From: Acidobacteriota bacterium | GTDB lineage: Bacteria; Acidobacteriota; Blastocatellia; RBC074 | Direction of reading: 5' to 3' | Assembly (NCBI GenBank): GCA_022072205.1 | Contig: JAJVID010000143.1 | Span: 727 to 64,726, forward strand | DNA: 64,000 nucleotides | Shown: positions 4,424 through 63,084 of the stretch, piece after piece | Position numbering within the stretch: position 1 is the first letter of the stretch | How the letters are laid out: each line of letters begins with the position of its first letter | Position numbers and translations under genes: made by a program | Notes under the pieces: model-generated | Database searches by the model: none | The model's input: the letters and a program-made list of their open reading frames with translations, nothing else | What the model was told of the DNA's origin: nothing

Positions 4424-5167
4424 ATGGTAAAGATTGATGACACGAACAACCCTGGGAAATACGAACGAGACGAATTTTCTCCGAACGAGTACACTGCCGG
4501 CGAACAGAGCGGTGGCCCCAGAGGTTACTCACTCCAGTTCGATGACGACGACCGCGATCCCTGGAACTACGATGATAATTACCGCCGCGATAAAGATCTG
4601 GACGACGATGACGATGATTATCTGAAAGACGAAGACGAGGTGGAGATCGAAGAAGACGACGATAGGTTCAGCGATGAAAAACCCGGCAGCCCCGTTTGGC
4701 CCGGACACAGCGTTGACCAGGAGGAAGAAGAACCTGCTCCAGTTGTCTCAACCGTCTTGTCACCCCCGGCGCCGGAACCCGCGCCAATTCCGGCGGCTGC
4801 TGAACCATCGGCCCCGCCAGCCGCAAAGCCTGCCAGGAAACCGGCCAAGAAAGCTGCAAAGAAAGCTGCGAAGAAGGCTGCGAAACCAGCTAAGAAGGCT
4901 GCTAAGAAAGCCGCCAAGAAAGCCACCAAGAAGGCTGCGAAACCAGCTAAGAAAGCCGCCAAGAAGGCTGCTAAGAAAGCCGCCAAGAAGGCTGCTAAGA
5001 AAGCCGCAAAACCGGCTAAGAAAGCTGCTAAGAAAGTAGCCAAGAAAGCTACAGCCAGGAAAGCCGCAAAACCGGCTAAGAAGGCGACCAAGAAGGCGGC
5101 CAAGACTGCTAAGAAAGCCGTGAAGAAACCAGCTAAGAAGGCTGCCAAGAAAGGCTCCAGAAGATAA
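4424..5167 (+). CDS. bipolar nucleoid-type protein: acidic N-terminal half plus histone H1-like (AKKA)n C-terminal half
   Basis: AAGGAGG SD lies upstream of the ATG. Residues 1-110 are D/E-rich (DDDDDDYLKDEDEVEIEEDDD). Residues 135-247 are repeats of type KPAKKAAKKAAKKAAK. Confidence 0.8.
   Translation: MVKIDDTNNPGKYERDEFSPNEYTAGEQSGGPRGYSLQFDDDDRDPWNYDDNYRRDKDLDDDDDDYLKDEDEVEIEEDDDRFSDEKPGSPVWPGHSVDQEEEEPAPVVSTVLSPPAPEPAPIPAAAEPSAPPAAKPARKPAKKAAKKAAKKAAKPAKKAAKKAAKKATKKAAKPAKKAAKKAAKKAAKKAAKKAAKPAKKAAKKVAKKATARKAAKPAKKATKKAAKTAKKAVKKPAKKAAKKGSRR
4826..5164 (+). repeat. coding low-complexity repeat (AAG AAA GCY GCN, Lys/Ala tract)
   Basis: Imperfect 12/24-nt repeats of aagaaagccgccaagaaggctgct encode the AKKA tail. 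Confidence 0.8.
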
Positions 5168-6787: not shown

Positions 6788-7150
6788 CTGCCCTTAAGCG
6801 GAGCAAAGTAACGAGCCGCAAGCCCTTTCCATTAGAGCGGATTGTTTAACAGGTTATTCGCATGTCGCGGCTGGTGATTGCAATTACCGCTAACCAGCCA
6901 ATCATAAAGCTGATTGAAAAGCCTGTCCTCAGACTAAGCTGGGGTTGGTGTGGGCCGACACAGGCCCATACCACCCATTACAGGTATGACAACTTCCCCT
7001 CGTGAGATCAACGGTGGAACTTTGCGGGAATCAGCGACAGCGCTTTAGTTAAGCGCCCCACGATCACAACTCAATACTGTTGCTCGTTGATGGGGCAATG
7101 CTACCTTATGAAATTTGTCAACGCAAGAGGGATGGCAGGGGAGAGCAAGG

Positions 7151-7246
7151 AAAATCAAAAGGCAAAAATCAAAGGGCGAAAGTAAGAGGACGAATTTGCA
7201 GTCCAGAACTTTTGCCCTTTGATTTTTGCCTTTTGATTTTTGATTT
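7151..7246 (-). repeat. heptad-periodic palindrome immediately after the ftsZ stop (probable terminator)
   Basis: Arm 7151-7177 (aaaatcaaaaggcaaaaatcaaagggc) is the exact reverse complement of arm 7214-7240, with a 36-nt loop. Both arms have 7-nt periodicity (tttgccc tttgatt tttgcct tttgatt tttgatt). Confidence 0.85.
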
Positions 7247-11210: not shown

Positions 11211-12596
11211 TCAACTCTTCATCGCTTCCAGAAATTCTTCCCCGGCCCGCCAGACATTGCCTGCGCCCAGCGTCAACACCAGATCGCCCGGTTCAACCGA
11301 ATCCAGCAATGCCTGTTTGCCCTGCTCGACTCCGCCGATGTAACGCGCGTTGCGATGCCCGAACTTTTCGATCTCTTCGGCCAGAGTCTGCGAGTTGACG
11401 CCGGGAATCGGGTCTTCACTCGCGGCGTAAATATCGCACAGCAACACGACATCGGCGTCATAAAAAGACCGCGCGAAATCTTCGTGCAGCGCAGCCGTCC
11501 GCGTGTAACGATGCGGCTGGAACAGCGCCACAAGACGGCGTCCGCTGGATTTTGCCGCCGCCAGCGTCGCGCGAATTTCGGTCGGATGGTGACCGTAATC
11601 GTCAACCACCAGAATGCCGTTCCTCTCGCCTTCAATCAGACCTTTGATTTGAAACCGCCGCTCGGCGCCGCGAAACGCTTCAAGCCCTTCGGCGATGACC
11701 TGGAAATCAACTTCCAGATCGAGGCCGACCGCAACCGCCGCCAACGCGTTGAGCACGTTGTGTTCGCCGGGCACGTGAAGTCTGATCCGTCCAAGCTCTT
11801 CGCCTTTGCGCCGCACCGCGAAATCGGAGCCGAAATTCTCGCGCGAAATCCGCACATCGAAAGCCGAAATCTCAGCGTGCGCCCGCATCCCGTAAGTAAT
11901 CACGCGCCGCGCAATCTGCGGAATGATCATCTGGATGTTCGAATCGTCCAGGCAAATGATCACCGAGCCGTAAAACGGAACCTTGTTGACGAACTGCACG
12001 AAGTAAGAGCGAATCTCTTCGATGCCGGAATAAAAGTCCAGATGCTCAAGATCAATGTTCGTGACTACGGCGATGGTCGGCGACAGCTTGAGAAAACTTT
12101 TGTCGCTCTCGTCGGCTTCGACCACCATAAAATCGCCGTGCCCCAGTTTGGCGTTGCTGCCGATGGTGTTGATACGGCCACCCACAACTATCGTCGGGTC
12201 GAGGTCAGCGCGGTCGAGCACAGTCGCCACCATCGAAGTTGTGGTCGTCTTGCCGTGCGATCCGGCGATGGCGATGCCGTATTTCAATCGCATCAACTCA
12301 GCCAGCATCTCGGCGCGCGGAATCACGGGAATCTGACGCCGCACCGCCTCGGCAACTTCGGGATTGTCGGCTCGCACCGCCGTCGAAGTGACGACGACCT
12401 GCGCGCCATCAATGTTACTCGCGCCGTGACCTTCAAAGACGCTCGCTCCCAACCCGCTCAATCGTTCGGTGATCACTGAAGCCTTCGCGTCGGAACCAGA
12501 GACGCGATAGCCCAGATTTAACAACACCTCCGCTATGCCGCTCATCCCGATGCCGCCGATCCCTACGAAGTGAATGTGCTGGTACTTTTTGAACAT
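11211..12596 (-). CDS. murC: UDP-N-acetylmuramate--L-alanine ligase
   Basis: [17 protein letters not shown] and [14 protein letters not shown] 12594-12596 ([10 protein letters not shown]) is taken as start. The longer track ORF reads through the repeat element from a TTG. Confidence 0.92.
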
Positions 12597-12597
12597 A

Positions 12598-12658
12598 GTG
12601 GTTGGTGGTTGGTGGTTGGTGGTTGGCCTCTTGATACCAACCACCAACCACCAACCAC
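12598..12658 (-). repeat. GTGGTTG/CAACCAC heptad hairpin filling the murG-murC junction
   Basis: (gtggttg)x4 at 12598-12625, loop gcctcttgata, then (ccaacca)x3 c at 12637-12658. The arms are complementary over 22 nt. Confidence 0.9.
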
Positions 12659-13830
12659 TACTCTCTGATTCTCATCGCCAGATCAACAACGCTCTTCGCC
12701 GCGTCCGGATGCCCCAGCCTCCTGCTGGCTTCGGCCATGCGGTTCAATTGATGCGGATCGCGGATGAGCCACAACAACTCTTTCGCCAAACGTTCGGGCG
12801 TCAACTCGGCTTGCAGAATCATTCGGCCCGCTCCGGCGCGCTCAATGGCTTCAGCGTTTTTGCGCTGATGGTCGTCAGCGGCGAACGGAAACGGAATCAT
12901 AATCGCCGGTTTGCCCGCCGCCGCAAGCTCCGCCACGGTGGTCGCCCCGGCGCGGCTGATGACCAGATCGGCGCGGGCGAATTCATCAACCATCTTTTCA
13001 ATAAAAGGCTTCACCTCGGCGTCCATGCCTGAATTTTCAAAAGCGTCGCGCACGCGGTAAAAATCGTTCTCGCCGGTTTGATGGGTGAACGACAGACGGT
13101 CTTTCTCTTCCGCAAGCAGAGGCAGCGCGCCGGCCACCGCCTCGTTGATCGCGCGCGCGCCCTGGCTGCCGCCGGTGACGAGCACGTGAACCACCCCGTT
13201 TGGATGCCCTTCGGCATGTTTGACTGGAACGTCAAAAAACTCCGCGCGAACCGGATTGCCGGTGATCTCGGCCTTCTCGCCGAAAAACCTTCTCGCTTCT
13301 TCAAACGAGACGGCGGCGGCTTTGACGAATCGCGCGAGCACGCGATTGGTGAAGCCCGGCATCGCGTTCTGCTCGGCCACCAAAGTCGGCACTTTCATCA
13401 ACGCAGCCATCAACACAACCGGCCCCGACGCGTACCCGCCGACGCCGATCACCACATCCGGCCTGACCTGTTTGATCAAAGATCGAACGGCAAGAAAACT
13501 TTTCGGCAGCATCAACAGCGACTTGACGCGTTTGACGATGCTGACGCGTTTGAGCGCGGCCACTTCGATCAATTCCAGATTGAATCCCTCGCGCGGAATG
13601 ATCTTCGTTTCAAGCCCTCTGGCCGTGCCCACGAAAAGAATCTGCGTATCCGCGTCGCGCCGCCTGAACTCCTGCGCGATGGCGACGCCGGGATAAATGT
13701 GCCCGCCAGTGCCGCCGCCAGCAATGATGACAGAGAGCGGGAGAGCGCTAGATCGCGAGAGCGCGAGAGCGGAGGACCCCACTGCGCCTTGCTCTCTCGA
13801 ATTTGACGCCTCTTGTCTCGATTCGCTCAT
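12658..13830 (-). CDS. murG: undecaprenyldiphospho-muramoylpentapeptide beta-N-acetylglucosaminyltransferase
   Basis: [12 protein letters not shown] motif. The first 30 aa are encoded by the repeat element at the ftsW/murG junction. Confidence 0.9.
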
Positions 13831-13866
13831 CTCCCGCTCTCCCGCTCTCGCGATCTCCCGCTTTCG
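13732..13866 (-). repeat. 8-nt-periodic imperfect palindrome spanning the ftsW stop and murG start
   Basis: Left arm 13732-13774 (agagagcg ggagagcg ctagatcg cgagagcg cgagagcg). Right arm 13831-13866 (ctcccgct ctcccgct ctcgcgat ctcccgct). About 27 nt are complementary with a few mismatches. Confidence 0.8.
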
Positions 13867-14995
13867 ATTCCCTGCTCTGACACATTCAACAGGATTCCGA
13901 CTGACGCCAGCGCAGTGATCAGCGACGATCCGCCCGCGCTGATGAACGGAAGCGTGATGCCTTTGGCCGGAACCAGATTCAACGCCACGCTGATATTGAA
14001 AAACGCCTGGATTACGATGCTCGTGGTCAACCCGACGGCGAGCAGCATCCCCAGACGATCAGGCGCGCGGAATCCGGCGCGCAACCCACGCCACAAAAAG
14101 AATCCGAAGACGAGCACCAGCGTCGCCGCGCCAGCCAACCCAAGCTCTTCCGAGATCACCGAGAAAATAAAATCCGATTGCGGCTCCGGCAGAAATGCAA
14201 GCTTCTGTCTGCCCTGCCCGAACCCGAGTCCGTTCATTCCGCCTGAGCCGACCGCCGTCAACGATTGCAAAATCTGATAGCCTTTGCCGCGCGGATCGCG
14301 TTCGGGATCGAGGAAAACCAGCACGCGATCCCAACGCCAGACGACTTTGACAACAAGGAAGACGAGCACAGCAGCCAGTATCGGCGAGAGCTTGTACAAA
14401 TGTCTCGCAGGCGCGCCAGCGGCGAACAGCATAGTCAGAAAGATGACGCCGAGCATCAGCGTCGTTCCCAAATCAGGCTCTTTCAAAATCAACACAGCCA
14501 GCAATCCCATCACCACGCTGGCCGGAGCGATAGTCGCCCAGAAATTTTCCAGATCGCCGTCGCGCTCGCGTTCCGACAGAAACCACGCCAGGAAAATTAC
14601 CAGAGCGATTTTCGCCAGTTCCGACGGCTGCGCCGAAAAGCCTTTGAAAAGTATCCACCGGTGCGCGTTGTTGACTTTCGGAAACAGGAAGACCACGAGC
14701 AGCAGGATGACGCAGGCGCCAAGAAACCCGTAAACGACGCTTGGTTGCGCGAGCCTGTGATAATCAATGCGACGCAACACGAGCATTGCGATCAGCCCCA
14801 TCGCCGCATAGCGAATTTGCCCATACAAAAACGCATTCGGATTTTTGGTTCCAGCCGATGCGCTGTAAACCATAATCACTCCGAACAACGTCAGGCCGAT
14901 GGCCGCCGCCGCGAGCCACAAATCCCAGCGCAACTCTTCAGTAGTCTGTAACAAATTTTTACGGGAGCTTTTCGTCATTGGGGGAATCTCGAATC

Positions 14996-14999
<4 letters not shown>
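13827..14999 (-). CDS. ftsW: peptidoglycan glycosyltransferase FtsW (SEDS family)
   Basis: Multi-TM SEDS sequence located between murD and murG. The track start is TTG 14999, overlapping the murD stop as TTGA. ATG 14978 (MTKSSRK) is an alternative start. Confidence 0.88.

Positions 15000-15004
<5 letters not shown>
14984..15004 (-). repeat. three heptads at the murD/ftsW junction
   Basis: gaatctc gaatctc aaatccc. Confidence 0.6.
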
Positions 15005-22834: not shown

Positions 22835-22862
22835 ATTTGATATTTAATATTTGATATTTGAT
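22835..22862 (-). repeat. AT-rich heptad tandem repeat in the ftsL-ftsI spacer
   Basis: atttgat atttaat atttgat atttgat. Confidence 0.75.
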
Positions 22863-28221: not shown

Positions 28222-29178
28222 ATGGCTACAAAACCTTACGACCAGGCGTTCAAATTTCTCGCCGAGCAGGACCCGGAGAGTCTGTTATTGATGCTCGGCG
28301 CAATCGAACCGGACGAGAATGCCGTCATCGAATTGCTGCCGCGCGAAATCAGCGCGGCCGCCGTGTTGCCTGACCAGCCTTACCTCGTCACATCGGCGCG
28401 CGGCAAGCGCGTGGTTCACGTCGAAGCATGGACGAGATGGGAAAAGGAAATCCCGGATCGGATGGTCGAATACGGGCCGCTGCACTGGTTCAAGTATCTC
28501 CTGCCGGTGGACAGCTACGTCATTCTGCTGACGAAAAAAGGTCTGCCGCGTCGCCCGCCGCGGAGCGGAGTTATCAACGCAGGCGGCACGCGCATCGAGA
28601 CGCGCTTTCATCTGATCCGCGTTTGGAAGATTCCGGCGCGCAAGGCGCTTGAATCGGGACGACCGGCATTGCTGCCCTTCGTGCCATTGATGGACGGTGG
28701 GCGCGAAGAGTTGGAAGCAGGCGCCGAGGCGTTACGCTCAGTGCCTGACGAAAGGCAGCGCAGCGAGATGGGCCTGCATTTTGTGATGCTCGGAGGCCTG
28801 CGCTACAATGACATTGACCTGCTGAAATTGCTCGTCGGAGGAACGTCTATGATGCCAATCGAACGATTACGCGAGTCGAGTTTCTATCAATCCATTCTCA
28901 GAGAAGGACGCGAAGAAGGACGCGAAGAAGGACGCGAAGAAGGACGCGAAGAAGGACGCGAAGAAGGACGCGAAGAGGAAAGACTTAGATTGCTGAAAGT
29001 CACTGCCGATAATTTACGCCAATTGATTGCTAAGCGCTTTCCCAGTATTCAAATCGGCAAAGAACTCGAAGCAATCAGCGATCTCGACATTTTGCAGCGT
29101 TTGTTCATCGAACTCGATGATATCCACGATCCTGACACACTCCGTCGCAGGATTTCCGAATTGGCCACGATGACTTGA
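28222..29178 (+). CDS. Rpn/YhgA-like PD-(D/E)XK putative nuclease/transposase with DUF4351-like tail
   Basis: The N-terminus YDQAFKFLAEQDP...VVHVEAWT...RMVEYGPLHW resembles the Rpn family. C-terminus has an (EGRE)n tract then LRQLIAKRF...LDILQRLF. Start taken at ATG 28222. Family assignment is from memory of motifs, not from a search. Confidence 0.55.
   Translation: MATKPYDQAFKFLAEQDPESLLLMLGAIEPDENAVIELLPREISAAAVLPDQPYLVTSARGKRVVHVEAWTRWEKEIPDRMVEYGPLHWFKYLLPVDSYVILLTKKGLPRRPPRSGVINAGGTRIETRFHLIRVWKIPARKALESGRPALLPFVPLMDGGREELEAGAEALRSVPDERQRSEMGLHFVMLGGLRYNDIDLLKLLVGGTSMMPIERLRESSFYQSILREGREEGREEGREEGREEGREEGREEERLRLLKVTADNLRQLIAKRFPSIQIGKELEAISDLDILQRLFIELDDIHDPDTLRRRISELATMT
28903..28974 (+). 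repeat. perfect 12-nt tandem repeat x6 inside the Rpn-like CDS
   Basis: gaaggacgcgaa repeated six times without mismatch, encoding EGREEGREEGRE... Confidence 0.95.
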
Positions 29179-32303: not shown

Positions 32304-32306
32304 AGA

Positions 32307-32404
32307 ATGGTGGTTGGTAGTTGGTGGTTGGTGGTAGAGACGTAAAATTTTACGTCTCTACCACCAACCACCAACTACCAACCACCAACCACTAACCACC
32401 AACT
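32307..32404 (+). repeat. perfect 80-nt palindrome of TTGGTGG/CCACCAA heptads, extending to the next start codon
   Basis: 32308-32347 is the exact reverse complement of 32348-32387. Units are atggtgg ttggtag ttggtgg ttggtgg on the left and ccaccaa ccaccaa ctaccaa ccaccaa ccactaa ccaccaa on the right. The ATG at 32405 follows 2 nt later. Confidence 0.95.
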
Positions 32405-43525: not shown

Positions 43526-43542
43526 AATGTCTCCTTGAAAAA

Positions 43543-43624
43543 GGGCATGGAGTTCAAGCTTTAGCTTGTGACCGCCATCTTCGGGCGACTCAAAGCCGCA
43601 AGCTGAAGCTTGAACTCCATGCCC
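43543..43624 (-). terminator. long stem-loop between the two BNR genes
   Basis: gggcatggagttcaagctt (43543-43561) pairs with aagcttgaactccatgccc (43606-43624), a 19-bp perfect stem that extends imperfectly. T-runs lie on both sides. Confidence 0.5.
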
Positions 43625-43668
43625 TTTTTTATTGTTCCAGAGCGTCGCCAAGCGACATGGGCGACTCC

Positions 43669-58280: not shown

Positions 58281-58283
58281 AGT

Positions 58284-58368
58284 GGAATGGGGAATGGGGA
58301 ATGGGGAATGGGGAATGGGGATGGAATCTCAAGCTTATTCCGCATTCTGCATTCCGCATTCCCCATTC
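58284..58368 (-). repeat. GGAATGG heptad hairpin filling the ybaB-recR junction
   Basis: (ggaatgg)x5 at 58284-58318, then ggatgga atctcaa gcttatt, then ccgcatt ctgcatt ccgcatt ccccatt at 58340-58367. The arms are complementary at about 28/32 positions. Confidence 0.9.
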
Positions 58369-58370
58369 GG

Positions 58371-61263: not shown

Positions 61264-61300
61264 GCAGGCGGGTAAATATTTTGTGACGTAGTCAGGGATC

Positions 61301-61342
61301 ATATTTCATATCACATATGAAATATTGCATATGAAATATGGC
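61301..61342. repeat. ATAT-phased heptad repeat with alternative hairpins
   Basis: atatttc atatcac atatgaa atattgc atatgaa atatggc. The segment catatttcatat can pair with either of two atatgaaatat copies. Confidence 0.8.
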
Positions 61343-61377
61343 TTCAACGCTGTTATCAGCGCCCCGAAAATGGGACA

Positions 61378-61477
61378 GGCTCCGGTTACTGCCGCGGCAC
61401 ATCCGAACAACGCTACCGTTGCTACCTTCCGGTCCTGGCGGGATTCACGCGTTCGGGATTGCACGGAGTCCGGAGCC
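61378..61477 (-). ncRNA. ffs: signal recognition particle RNA (small, 4.5S-type)
   Basis: The minus-strand transcript contains helix-8 core GCCAGGACCGGAAGGUAGCAACGG (GGAA tetraloop, conserved AGCA). The 5' GGCUCCGG pairs with the 3' CCGGAGCC. The location upstream of dnaX matches a widespread synteny. Confidence 0.75.
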
Positions 61478-61523: not shown

Positions 61524-61610
<87 letters not shown>

Positions 61611-61655: not shown

Positions 61656-61742
<87 letters not shown>

Positions 61743-62471: not shown

Positions 62472-63062
62472 GTGTCTTCTTCGTACCAGAAATTCATAAA
62501 ACAGGTAGATGAACTCGCCGCGAAGCTACAGGCGCGTTACTCGAACCATCTGGTTTGCCGCGCGGGATGCAGCGGATGTTGCCACCATCATCTTTCCGTT
62601 TTCACCGTCGAAGCAGAAGCTGTTCGCGCGGCGATTGAAAATATGCCCGCTCAGGTTCGCGCTCGTGTGGAAGCGCAGGCTCGTGAAGTCATCGTACGCG
62701 AAGCTCAGGGCGAGACGGTAGCCTGTCCGCTGCTGCTTGACGACCGTTGTTCGATTTACGAATCGCGCCCGCTGATCTGTCGAACCCAGGGGCTGCCGTT
62801 GTTGATGGAGGCGGAGGACGGCGAACAGGAAATTGATTTCTGTCCGCTGAATTTCACCGAGGCCGGCGCGGTTGATGATCTGGATGAAAATCATCTTGCG
62901 CCGCTCGACCAGTTAAACTTGCGGCTGGCGCTGGTGAATTTGCAGCATTGCCGCGAAACGGGACTGGCGGATGGCGCGAGTGGCGAGCGCGTGAAGATGG
63001 CCGACATCGCGCTTGAATCTCAGACCTCAATCCCAAATCCCAAATCCCAAATTCAAGGCTGA
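62472..63062 (+). CDS. YkgJ family cysteine-cluster protein
   Basis: CRAGCSGCCHH and CPLLLDDRCSIYESRPLICR motifs. GTG start. Confidence 0.75.
   Translation: MSSSYQKFIKQVDELAAKLQARYSNHLVCRAGCSGCCHHHLSVFTVEAEAVRAAIENMPAQVRARVEAQAREVIVREAQGETVACPLLLDDRCSIYESRPLICRTQGLPLLMEAEDGEQEIDFCPLNFTEAGAVDDLDENHLAPLDQLNLRLALVNLQHCRETGLADGASGERVKMADIALESQTSIPNPKSQIQG
63029..63056 (+). repeat. AATCCCA heptad repeat at the 3' end of the YkgJ-like CDS
   Basis: aatccca aatccca aatccca aattcaa, bracketed by cttgaat (63012-63018) and attcaag (63051-63057). Confidence 0.8.
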
Positions 63063-63084
63063 ATGATTGCCAACGGAGGGTCGC

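Follow-up and report, generated by a model that had tools for sequence, protein, structure and literature searches.

We analyzed a stretch of 64,000 nucleotides (nt) from an Acidobacteriota bacterium of the Blastocatellia (NCBI GenBank assembly GCA_022072205.1, contig JAJVID010000143.1, positions 727 to 64,726 of the forward strand; hereafter, the window), with a focus on the spacer between murG and murC, which consists of a hairpin built from inverted heptamer repeats. Both genes are encoded on the minus strand, murG at 12658..13830 and murC at 11211..12596, with the murC start codon ATG at 12596. Their identities, proposed in a first-pass annotation made from the sequence alone, hold: each coding sequence (CDS) matches an NCBIfam equivalog model, with 349.8 bits to TIGR01133 for murG, which is also present in the list of open reading frames (ORFs), and 554.4 bits for murC. 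The gap from murG to murC comprises 61 nt (12597-12657), and the murG stop codon UAG (12660-12658) contributes the first three bases of the 5′ arm of the hairpin. Read along the mRNA, the order is GAG-UAG-(UGGUUGG)x3-UAUCAAGAGG-(CCAACCA)x4-CU-AUG; two nucleotides (C and U) separate the four CCAACCA units from the AUG, and not the single nucleotide initially annotated.

An inverted-repeat search of this region returns perfect 25-nt arms (12596-12620 and 12636-12660) and a 15-nt loop, and Tandem Repeats Finder (TRF) assigns both arms a period of seven with 100% identity (4.1 copies at 12598-12626 and 3.3 copies at 12636-12658, in plus-strand coordinates). In the lowest-energy register obtained by folding, the G-rich 5′ arm (12636..12660, minus strand) is composed of UAG, (UGGUUGG)x3, and U, or ≈3.3 heptamers; the loop (12621..12635, AUCAAGAGGCCAACC) holds AAGAGG and one spare CCAACC unit; and the 3′ arm (12596..12620), which is rich in C and A and free of G, is part of a full (CCAACCA)x4.1 array at 12598-12626. 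An alternative register, shifted by one heptamer, gives a 22-bp stem with a 10-nt loop. The arms are complementary at all 25 positions, and a base pair joins the U of the murG UAG to the A of the murC ATG. The picture drawn in the first-pass annotation, of a hairpin that fills the whole spacer and places the murG stop and murC start at the base of one stem, is thus borne out by a perfect 25-bp stem.

Several measures set this hairpin apart from chance. The RNA fold in a 111-nt context has an energy of −55 kcal/mol versus a shuffle mean of −27.9 kcal/mol (z = −7.9), with 0 of 200 shuffles as stable, and the single-stranded DNA fold of the element has an energy of −31 kcal/mol (z = −8.6). The 13-mer GGTTGGTGGTTGG, with at most one mismatch, occurs 11 times in the window versus 0.03 occurrences expected. 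Moreover, the 61 nt of the spacer recur unchanged in four further independent assemblies (L162, L163, L165, and L081), and the spacer is therefore not an assembly artifact. The murG–murC hairpin is real and far beyond chance expectation. Among the Rfam 15 covariance models searched against the window, none places a family at this site, and only the signal recognition particle (SRP) RNA and two tRNAs are matched. The core sites of an integron attC element (RYYYAAC/GTTRRRY), sought by eye, are likewise unmatched.

The sole Shine–Dalgarno (SD)-like hexamer, AAGAGG, is found in the loop 30 nt from the AUG, where it had been placed at the outset, and the 20 nt that precede the AUG contain no G. The accompanying claim that murC has no SD stands insofar as none is found beside its AUG, but this is not special: an SD-like 4-mer precedes only 14 of the 43 genes in the window, and a missing SD is therefore ordinary here. 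A G-free leader is not ordinary, however, since a complete lack of G in the 20 upstream nucleotides is found only at murC, recR, and the gene for the B12-binding subunit of methylmalonyl-CoA mutase (mcm) among these 43 genes, for which the mean G fraction is 0.27.

The open frame of murC reaches back to a TTG at 12647, and initiation at this codon would translate the repeat and give MurC a 17-residue N-terminal extension. We regard this as extremely improbable. In the ATG form, the NCBIfam murC model aligns from residue 7 onward, MurC is mostly 459 to 465 residues in length among the best 120 homologs, and all relatives whose junction spacer is unrelated or absent nonetheless keep the N-terminal sequence MFKKYQH; we therefore conclude that the repeat is not translated and that MurC starts at the ATG. 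The TTG, in addition, sits inside the stem. Initiation at the upstream TTG, one of the scenarios that the first-pass annotation had named as refuting its own proposal, is excluded by the lengths and N termini of these homologs. Exact look-ups of the 461-residue and 478-residue forms of MurC returned no match. A programmed bypass of the T4 gene 60 type was also considered by eye and rejected, as the take-off and landing codons are unmatched and the N terminus of murC is its own and conserved.

We reached close relatives of this locus by a MurC homolog search, in which the nearest named relatives are Blastocatellales/Blastocatellia metagenome-assembled genomes (MAGs); one of these, GCA_009612875.1, shares 99.6% identity across 3 kb. 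A MurC scan of a genome–contig collection provided relatives of ≤63% identity only, and a metagenome scan provided the useful relatives L082 to L084 among the matches listed. The four assemblies that share the 61-nt spacer (L162, L163, L165, and L081; 98.5–99.9% nt identity) do so with zero indels. At 93% MurC identity, L166 harbors a 71-nt spacer with an unrelated perfect hairpin of 18-bp arms and no heptamers (TAG-TCCCGCCTTCAGGCGGAA...TTCCGCCTGAAGGCGGGA-CTA); L167 (91%) has a 107-nt spacer with a third hairpin of GTGCTGA/TCAGCAC units; and L168 (90%) has a 66-nt spacer with a fourth (GGAGTGGGAAATCGGGGC/GCCCCGATTCCCTACTCC). In L169 and L170 (89%), murG and murC overlap by 34 nt with a GAGGA SD within murG, and the spacer is just 7 nt in L082 (88%) and 12 nt in L083 (76%). 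These overlaps and spacers of ≤12 nt lead us to conclude that the ancestral junction was tight and of the coupling type, and that the hairpins were gained independently and recently. Relative to L169, the window contains ≈71 extra nt between ...GAAT and ATGTTC, and this insert provides the murG stop codon; the insertion edges read AT/AT with a 2-nt ambiguity, and no clear target-site duplication is seen at 12597-12657. As judged from these comparisons, the element is not a conserved regulatory element of the dcw operon and appears strain-deep, young, and fast-changing. Phase-variable copy number, a further candidate, was rejected because the arrays are identical in five assemblies of ≥98.5% identity.

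The murG–murC hairpin is not alone in the window. A sister hairpin (32304..32404, plus strand, from inverted-repeat analysis and folding) runs from the stop codon of an M16 peptidase gene to the ATG of mcm and is built from the same GGTTGGT/ACCAACC unit; its perfect stem spans 40 bp (−85.6 kcal/mol), after which 17 nt without G lead into the ATG. Its arm at 32370-32394 is identical to 12636-12660 at 24 of 25 positions, the loops of the two elements are unrelated, and the GGTTGGT unit occurs at these two loci within the window. In relatives, the M16–mcm junction harbors different hairpins, yet the leader is always G-poor. A third hairpin, identified by TRF and inverted-repeat analysis between ybaB and recR (58281..58370, minus strand; −52.4 kcal/mol), has the arrangement stop-(GAAUGSG)n-loop-(CCCCAUU)x5.4-CCACU-AUG; its GGGGAAU unit is also found in the M16–mcm hairpin of L178. 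In all three of these stop-to-start hairpins, the start-proximal C-rich array is the longer of the two (and, between ybaB and recR, also the more perfect), and all three end in ...CCACU or CAACU followed by AUG. Directly 3′ of the ftsZ stop codon, inverted-repeat analysis and folding locate a hairpin based on the AAAAUCA heptamer (7151..7246, minus strand; AAAAUCA/14-nt units) followed by a U-rich stretch; L166, the 93% relative, retains it in altered form, and it probably represents the ftsZ terminator. Finally, two single G-free arrays without an inverted partner are found at 22835-22862, (AUCAAAU)x4 between an ftsL-like gene and ftsI, and at 63029-63052, (AAUCCCA)x3.4 ending 10 nt before the ATG at 63063.

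Among tandem repeats, the period-7 class predominates in this lineage, with eight arrays in the window and 28 per 275 kb of Blastocatellia loci, and is also the commonest in 2.03 Mb from other phyla (92 arrays). In a census of hairpins with stems of ≥16 bp and ≥88% complementarity, where a skew was called if G exceeded C by ≥4 in the 5′ arm, 354 kb of Blastocatellia loci gave 47 hairpins, 21 of them G-first, none C-first, and 26 neutral; the 2.03 Mb from other phyla gave 14 G-first versus 2 C-first. Since a palindrome is identical on both strands, this G-first polarity belongs to the type of palindrome rather than to the direction of the genes. The 5′ arm begins 0 to 12 nt past the stop codon. 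All five hairpins at offset 0 have a TAG stop with a G before it, located inside the palindrome or array, the upstream ORF ending at the first stop that the element supplies. When the downstream gene has an SD, the hairpin is positioned upstream of a conserved 13- to 21-nt initiation region; elsewhere, a G-free array extends as far as the ATG. With the stem left out of the count, stop and start are ≤21 nt apart at 12 of 13 junctions.

Other junctions show the same turnover. Hairpins of 91 and 94 nt are found between mraY and murD in relatives; the murD–ftsW junction of L167 reads stop-(GGUAGUC)n-loop-(CAACCGA)n-CCAACU-AUG; and hairpins come and go among relatives at the ftsQ–ftsA, murE–murF, and M16–mcm junctions. 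The GAGATTC array between murD and ftsW has 2.4 copies in the window (14984-15002) and 16.9 perfect copies in L082 (6299-6416), and in L166 (7413-7645), this array is split by a hairpin-bearing insertion of ≈190 nt flanked by the direct duplication ATTCGAGATTTGAGATT. In L167 and L178, each arm is uniform internally with a fixed substitution relative to its partner arm, which is what independent slippage would produce. Dispersed palindromes of a different, nonperiodic kind are observed as well: CAGTACCGCGAGCGGTAGCGAGCGTG is found at different junctions in L168 (2767-2851), L178 (6695-6761), and L172 (14466-14528), as is GGGACAGACTTTAGTCTGTCCC in L173 (7745-7833), L171 and L172 (≈6790-6850), and L082 (18758-18808). 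Their recurrence across loci and genomes indicates that mobile families resembling repetitive extragenic palindromes (REPs) are present too. The GGGGACAG sequence within GGGACAGACTTTAGTCTGTCCC fits GGGGWSAS, a motif of the terminal inverted repeats (TIRs) of transposases in Acidobacteria that resemble REP-associated tyrosine transposases (RAYTs) (PMC3733652).

Folding models suggest how the hairpin might act on murC. At equilibrium, murC positions −15 to −1 have a probability of being unpaired of 0.004, the AUG region is >98% paired, and opening the AUG plus nine upstream nucleotides is calculated to cost 7.3 kcal/mol. If the stop codon alone is blocked as a mimic of a ribosome, the modeled stem moves by one heptamer to the 22-bp register, which frees the AUG and renders CAACCACUAUG single-stranded; if 10 to 12 nt past the stop are unwound, a stem of ≈10 to 12 bp is left and the entire leader is single-stranded. 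In the mechanism that we propose, the 25-bp stem would mask the murC AUG and its G-free, SD-less leader until the stem base is melted by a ribosome that terminates on the UAG of murG; the stem would then re-register by 7 nt, because the 3′ array holds one extra heptamer, and leave CAACCACUAUG single-stranded right beside the terminating ribosome. Initiation at murC would in this way depend on murG translation, that is, coupling by RNA unfolding, and would be throttled. The most likely effect predicted by these models is that murC initiation is made dependent on murG termination and is lowered. The RNA-unfolding model of translational coupling is itself established (PMC12548453), and the feature that defines it, a start kept closed by a structure that is opened by the ribosome on the upstream gene, is found here in silico only. 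The structure-dependent coupling or throttling suggested in the first-pass annotation is thus physically plausible, given an AUG that is masked and then freed by a ribosome on the UAG in folding models, but the implication of a dedicated murC device fails, with the hairpin absent or swapped for unrelated ones at 76 to 93% MurC identity and similar elements present at many other junctions.

Taken together, the murG–murC spacer is probably a young, lineage-specific palindrome of two inverted GGTTGGT/ACCAACC arrays that belongs to a fast-turnover population of palindromic repeats, heptamer-SSR-based and other, in the stop-to-start spacers of Blastocatellia operons. Approximately 71 nt would have been gained at an ancestrally overlapping or very short junction, either as a copy of a related element, such as that 20 kb distant with a near-identical arm, or starting with a short palindromic seed, and replication slippage in 7-nt steps would have followed, with the murG stop codon provided by the element. 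Such an element may persist if selection tolerates a purine/G-rich arm behind a stop and a G-poor arm at a start, with the stop and start remaining close once the hairpin is discounted. Several considerations weigh against this interpretation. Every functional step in it is modeled or inferred. In a synthetic operon of Escherichia coli, a stable structure just past the stop codon, termed a ribosome termination structure (RTS), lowered downstream re-initiation (PMC7518266); at murC, inhibition could therefore dominate the net effect, an awkward outcome where the gene is essential. When the 32.3-kb sister element is folded, 17 nt and the AUG stay unpaired, and masking of the murC AUG may be incidental, as the sister elements do not share full masking. 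A perfect 25-bp duplex is a likely substrate for RNase III, cleavage by which would change the picture. The heptamer copy number is constant in the five near-identical assemblies (≥98.5% nt identity). As for origin, the 64 kb of this genome analyzed are compatible with either a mobile element or growth in situ.

Among the alternatives, an arrival by transposition is the one that bears on origin. Here, a mobile palindrome similar to a REP or a MITE (miniature inverted-repeat transposable element) and moved by a transposase of the RAYT/TIRYT type or another would have landed at the murG stop, with the heptamer periodicity secondary. The near-identical 25-nt arm at a second locus is consistent with this possibility, as are the recurrence of other palindromes across loci and genomes (CAGTACCGCGAGCGGTAGCGAGCGTG in L168, L178, and L172; GGGACAGACTTTAGTCTGTCCC in L173, L171, L172, and L082), the direct duplication that flanks the murD–ftsW insertion of L166, and a G+TAG at the 5′ edge of all five stop-starting hairpins, which recalls the GTAG tag of REPs (PMC3733652). 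The TAG here is paired, however, and is not an unpaired tag; the two GGTTGGT elements have unrelated loops, and 12597-12657 shows no clear target-site duplication. In related elements, furthermore, each arm is homogenized on its own, and orthologous arrays differ by whole heptamer units, the pattern expected of slippage. On balance, we consider a mobile origin rather unlikely. A role of the hairpin in RNA processing or stability, in which an RNase III cut or an exonuclease block separates the fates of the murG and murC mRNAs and cleavage exposes the AUG, strikes us as quite unlikely. Long perfect double-stranded RNA is a substrate for RNase III, and REP-type hairpins stabilize upstream mRNA. 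The perfect duplexes of 25 bp here and 40 bp in the sister element are compatible with such a role, and REPs are thought to act as RNA elements (PMC3733652), but the poor conservation of the hairpin speaks against a required processing site.

The same lack of conservation makes it improbable that the hairpin is a dedicated, selected device for translational coupling or throttling that sets the MurG:MurC ratio. The position of the stop and start at one stem base, the masking of the AUG and its unmasking by a terminating ribosome in the models, and the presence of some hairpin at this junction in four of seven related genomes all argue for such a device. These four hairpins, on the other hand, are unrelated in sequence, length (61–107 nt), and distance to the AUG (1–20 nt), and three relatives have none; the mraY–murD, murD–ftsW, ftsQ–ftsA, and M16–mcm junctions gain and lose hairpins at similar rates, and all carriers of this spacer are identical in sequence, which leaves no differences in which covariation could show. 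An intrinsic terminator or attenuator between murG and murC would make use of the strong stem-loop, yet the stem is followed by no U-tract (CCACUAUGUUCAAAAAG), murC is essential and lies midoperon, and a terminator and promoter scan gave no prediction at the murG–murC site; we hold this explanation to be very improbable. Extremely improbable, too, is a switch between the hairpin and a G-quadruplex (G4), in which the G-arm competes as a two-tetrad G4 similar to that of the thrombin aptamer. The G-arm GGUUGGUGGUUGGUGGUUGG has six GG tracts with 1- to 2-nt loops, within the rule of four or more GG tracts for a G4, and on its own is predicted to adopt a two-tetrad G4 (−15.4 versus −11.1 kcal/mol). 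Once the C-arm is included, however, folding with G4 allowed yields the same hairpin (−55.6 kcal/mol), ≈40 kcal/mol ahead, and sister units such as AAAAUCA are unable to form a G4. The G4 alternative entertained in the first-pass annotation thus appears only once the C-arm is removed, with a gain of ≈4 kcal/mol.

A broader proposal can be formulated, although we view it as speculative and doubt that it is correct: the operon junctions of Blastocatellia, and perhaps of more soil bacteria, are repeatedly colonized by self-generated, rule-bound stop-to-start palindromes that together act as a general, renewable coupling device. The rules would be that the G-rich arm leads, that the 5′ arm encloses the stop, and that the SD-less leader is supplied by an arm rich in C and A and free of G. 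If so, the hairpin would cancel the length inserted and pull stop and start together, the terminating ribosome would melt the G-arm, and a slip of the heptamer register would make the leader, now free, available to that ribosome. On this view, the 21:0 polarity would stem either from selection at the transcript level, for instance against G-rich leaders or against C-rich sites left open to Rho loading, or from some process at the DNA level by which G-first palindromes arise.

Returning to the interpretation that we favor, a young heptamer-built palindrome, the closest known kind of element is the intergenic heptameric simple sequence repeat (SSR), including the convergent inverted pairs of Xanthomonas. 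Heptameric SSRs have been described as GGGAATC in Xanthomonas and GGGGAYT in Nostoc (Rehm et al. 2015, PMC4692102), and the short tandemly repeated repetitive (STRR) heptamers of heterocystous cyanobacteria are related. The Xanthomonas GGGAATC repeat forms 70 to 75 convergent inverted pairs that are near the upstream ORF, variable between close relatives, and of no known function (PMC4692102). The murG–murC element shares with the SSRs of Xanthomonas and Nostoc at least three tandem 7-nt units (4.1 and 3.3 copies here) between codirectional genes, at 0 nt from the murG stop, as well as two convergent arrays, G-rich first, that are capable of forming a stem-loop (21:0 G-first in related loci). 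Length and sequence of those SSRs vary between close relatives; at murG–murC, the five assemblies of ≥98.5% nt identity show no length variation, and the orthologous murD–ftsW array ranges from 2.4 to 16.9 copies among relatives. In contrast, the elements described here are found in Acidobacteriota/Blastocatellia with several units per genome as opposed to one dominant unit, and the hairpin fills the whole stop-to-start spacer and takes in the stop codon together with the A of the start codon, whereas Xanthomonas arrays average 160 nt from the downstream ORF (PMC4692102). CCAACCA arrays, visible as PTTNHQP repeats in small hypothetical ORFs, are found in Fischerella, Calothrix, Tolypothrix, a Bacteroidales MAG, and Cohnella; the unit thus recurs in different phyla as an SSR. 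When the translated array (PTTNHQP)6 was used as a query, 16 small ORFs were recovered, mostly cyanobacterial, with no further copies from this genome, and the metagenomic ORF P0243 contains the same G-first pair. A survey of short tandem repeats (STRs; PMC12699852) contains nothing on heptamers.

A second comparison is to the TAACTGA direct heptamers found beside start codons in marine Beggiatoaceae, some cyanobacteria, and Bacteroidetes (MacGregor 2015, PMC4679880). In both cases, an array with a G-poor sense strand is positioned within a few nucleotides of the start (2 nt here) in place of a ribosome-binding site; the TAACTGA repeats change in 7-nt steps between strains and have a suspected role in translation (PMC4679880). 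Those repeats, however, are direct and share one unit genome-wide, with one inverted case among 170 sets, whereas the CCAACCA array here has an inverted copy at the upstream stop. REPs and the related BIMEs and REPINs resemble the present element in being short palindromes just past a stop codon between codirectional genes that are transcribed, dispersed, and strain-variable (Di Nocera et al. 2013, PMC3733652). Positions 12661-12658 do read GTAG, but the TAG forms part of the stem and is the murG stop codon, and REPs are imperfect palindromes of 20 to 40 bp with one conserved sequence per family and an unpaired tag, as compared with a perfect, 7-nt periodic element of 65 nt. Nor does the window contain a multicopy family of the REP type, as only one related copy is found, with an unrelated loop. 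The hairpin arms could count as the TIRs of a MITE, and the insertion edges show only the 2-nt ambiguity.

The remaining comparisons are functional. An RTS (Chemla et al. 2020, PMC7518266) is, like the murG–murC hairpin, a stable structure inside an operon that begins within ≈5 nt after a stop codon (the stem here starts in the stop codon itself), but is defined by position and a stability of a few kcal/mol per 40-nt window, whereas the structure here is ≈10-fold more stable and contains the downstream start. Coupling by unfolding, as known from genes VII–IX of phage f1 and the coat–lysis pair of MS2 (PMC12548453), involves a start silenced by a structure that the upstream ribosome disrupts, a behavior that is modeled here; those structures are conserved and usually overlap the upstream CDS, whereas this one is all intergenic, built of repeats, and not conserved.

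In this operon, the hairpin may make MurC synthesis hinge on MurG translation; because the element is only strain-deep, this dependence is not to be extended to other species. Heptamer repeats at gene ends have been reported in Xanthomonas, Nostoc, and Beggiatoaceae, their function unsettled (PMC4692102, PMC4679880), and the wider interest of the present case lies in a pattern seen across the lineage, in the strictness of the G-first polarity, and in one essential junction being occupied repeatedly by nonhomologous hairpins. The lineage represents a natural experiment in which this junction harbors four different hairpins or none within ≈10% protein divergence, and raises questions of how palindromic insertions remain compatible with translational coupling, whether G-free C/A-rich arrays serve as SD-independent initiation regions, and what generates the palindromes. 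There are also practical consequences. The elements break short-read assemblies, with contigs L081 and L164 ending at the arms. Furthermore, many database entries for homologs of the 134-residue B12-binding subunit (P0124–P0216) are 151 to 225 residues long, with sequences such as GSGEWGVGS...PTPHSPLPTP and HHQPTTNNQQP; from their sequences, these overlong entries are annotation artifacts, in which gene callers have extended through the upstream repeat hairpins.

Several other features of the window are recorded here. Upstream of the murG–murC junction, inverted arrays of an 8-nt unit lie within CDSs at 13733-13865 (minus strand), where (GAGAGCGG)n encodes the last ftsW codons and (CGCUCUC)n encodes murG codons ≈20 to 32; a G-first hairpin with the murG start in its loop is predicted (−80.8 kcal/mol for the fold of the region, z = −3.5), and relatives have purine-rich (GGAGACA)n arrays at the ftsW–murG junction instead. 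A nonperiodic hairpin with 31-nt arms (97% complementary) is found at 43538-43629 (minus strand) between codirectional genes, with A/U runs on either side and then an AAGGAG SD; this canonical sequence indicates that the organism does use an SD at some genes. An Hfq-like gene is preceded by a conserved promoter-like TTGACA...TAGCAT sequence and a conserved leader of ≈400 nt. In-frame 12-nt tandem repeats are found at 28897-28982 (six perfect copies of AGAAGGACGCGA) and, as a long degenerate (AAGAAAGCTGCT)n array coding lysine/alanine-rich repeats, at 4825-5156. Finally, the bacterial small SRP RNA (61377-61475, minus strand) and two tRNA genes (61527-61610 and 61656-61742, minus strand) adjoin an AT-rich stretch with ATATGAA-type heptamers at 61299-61340.

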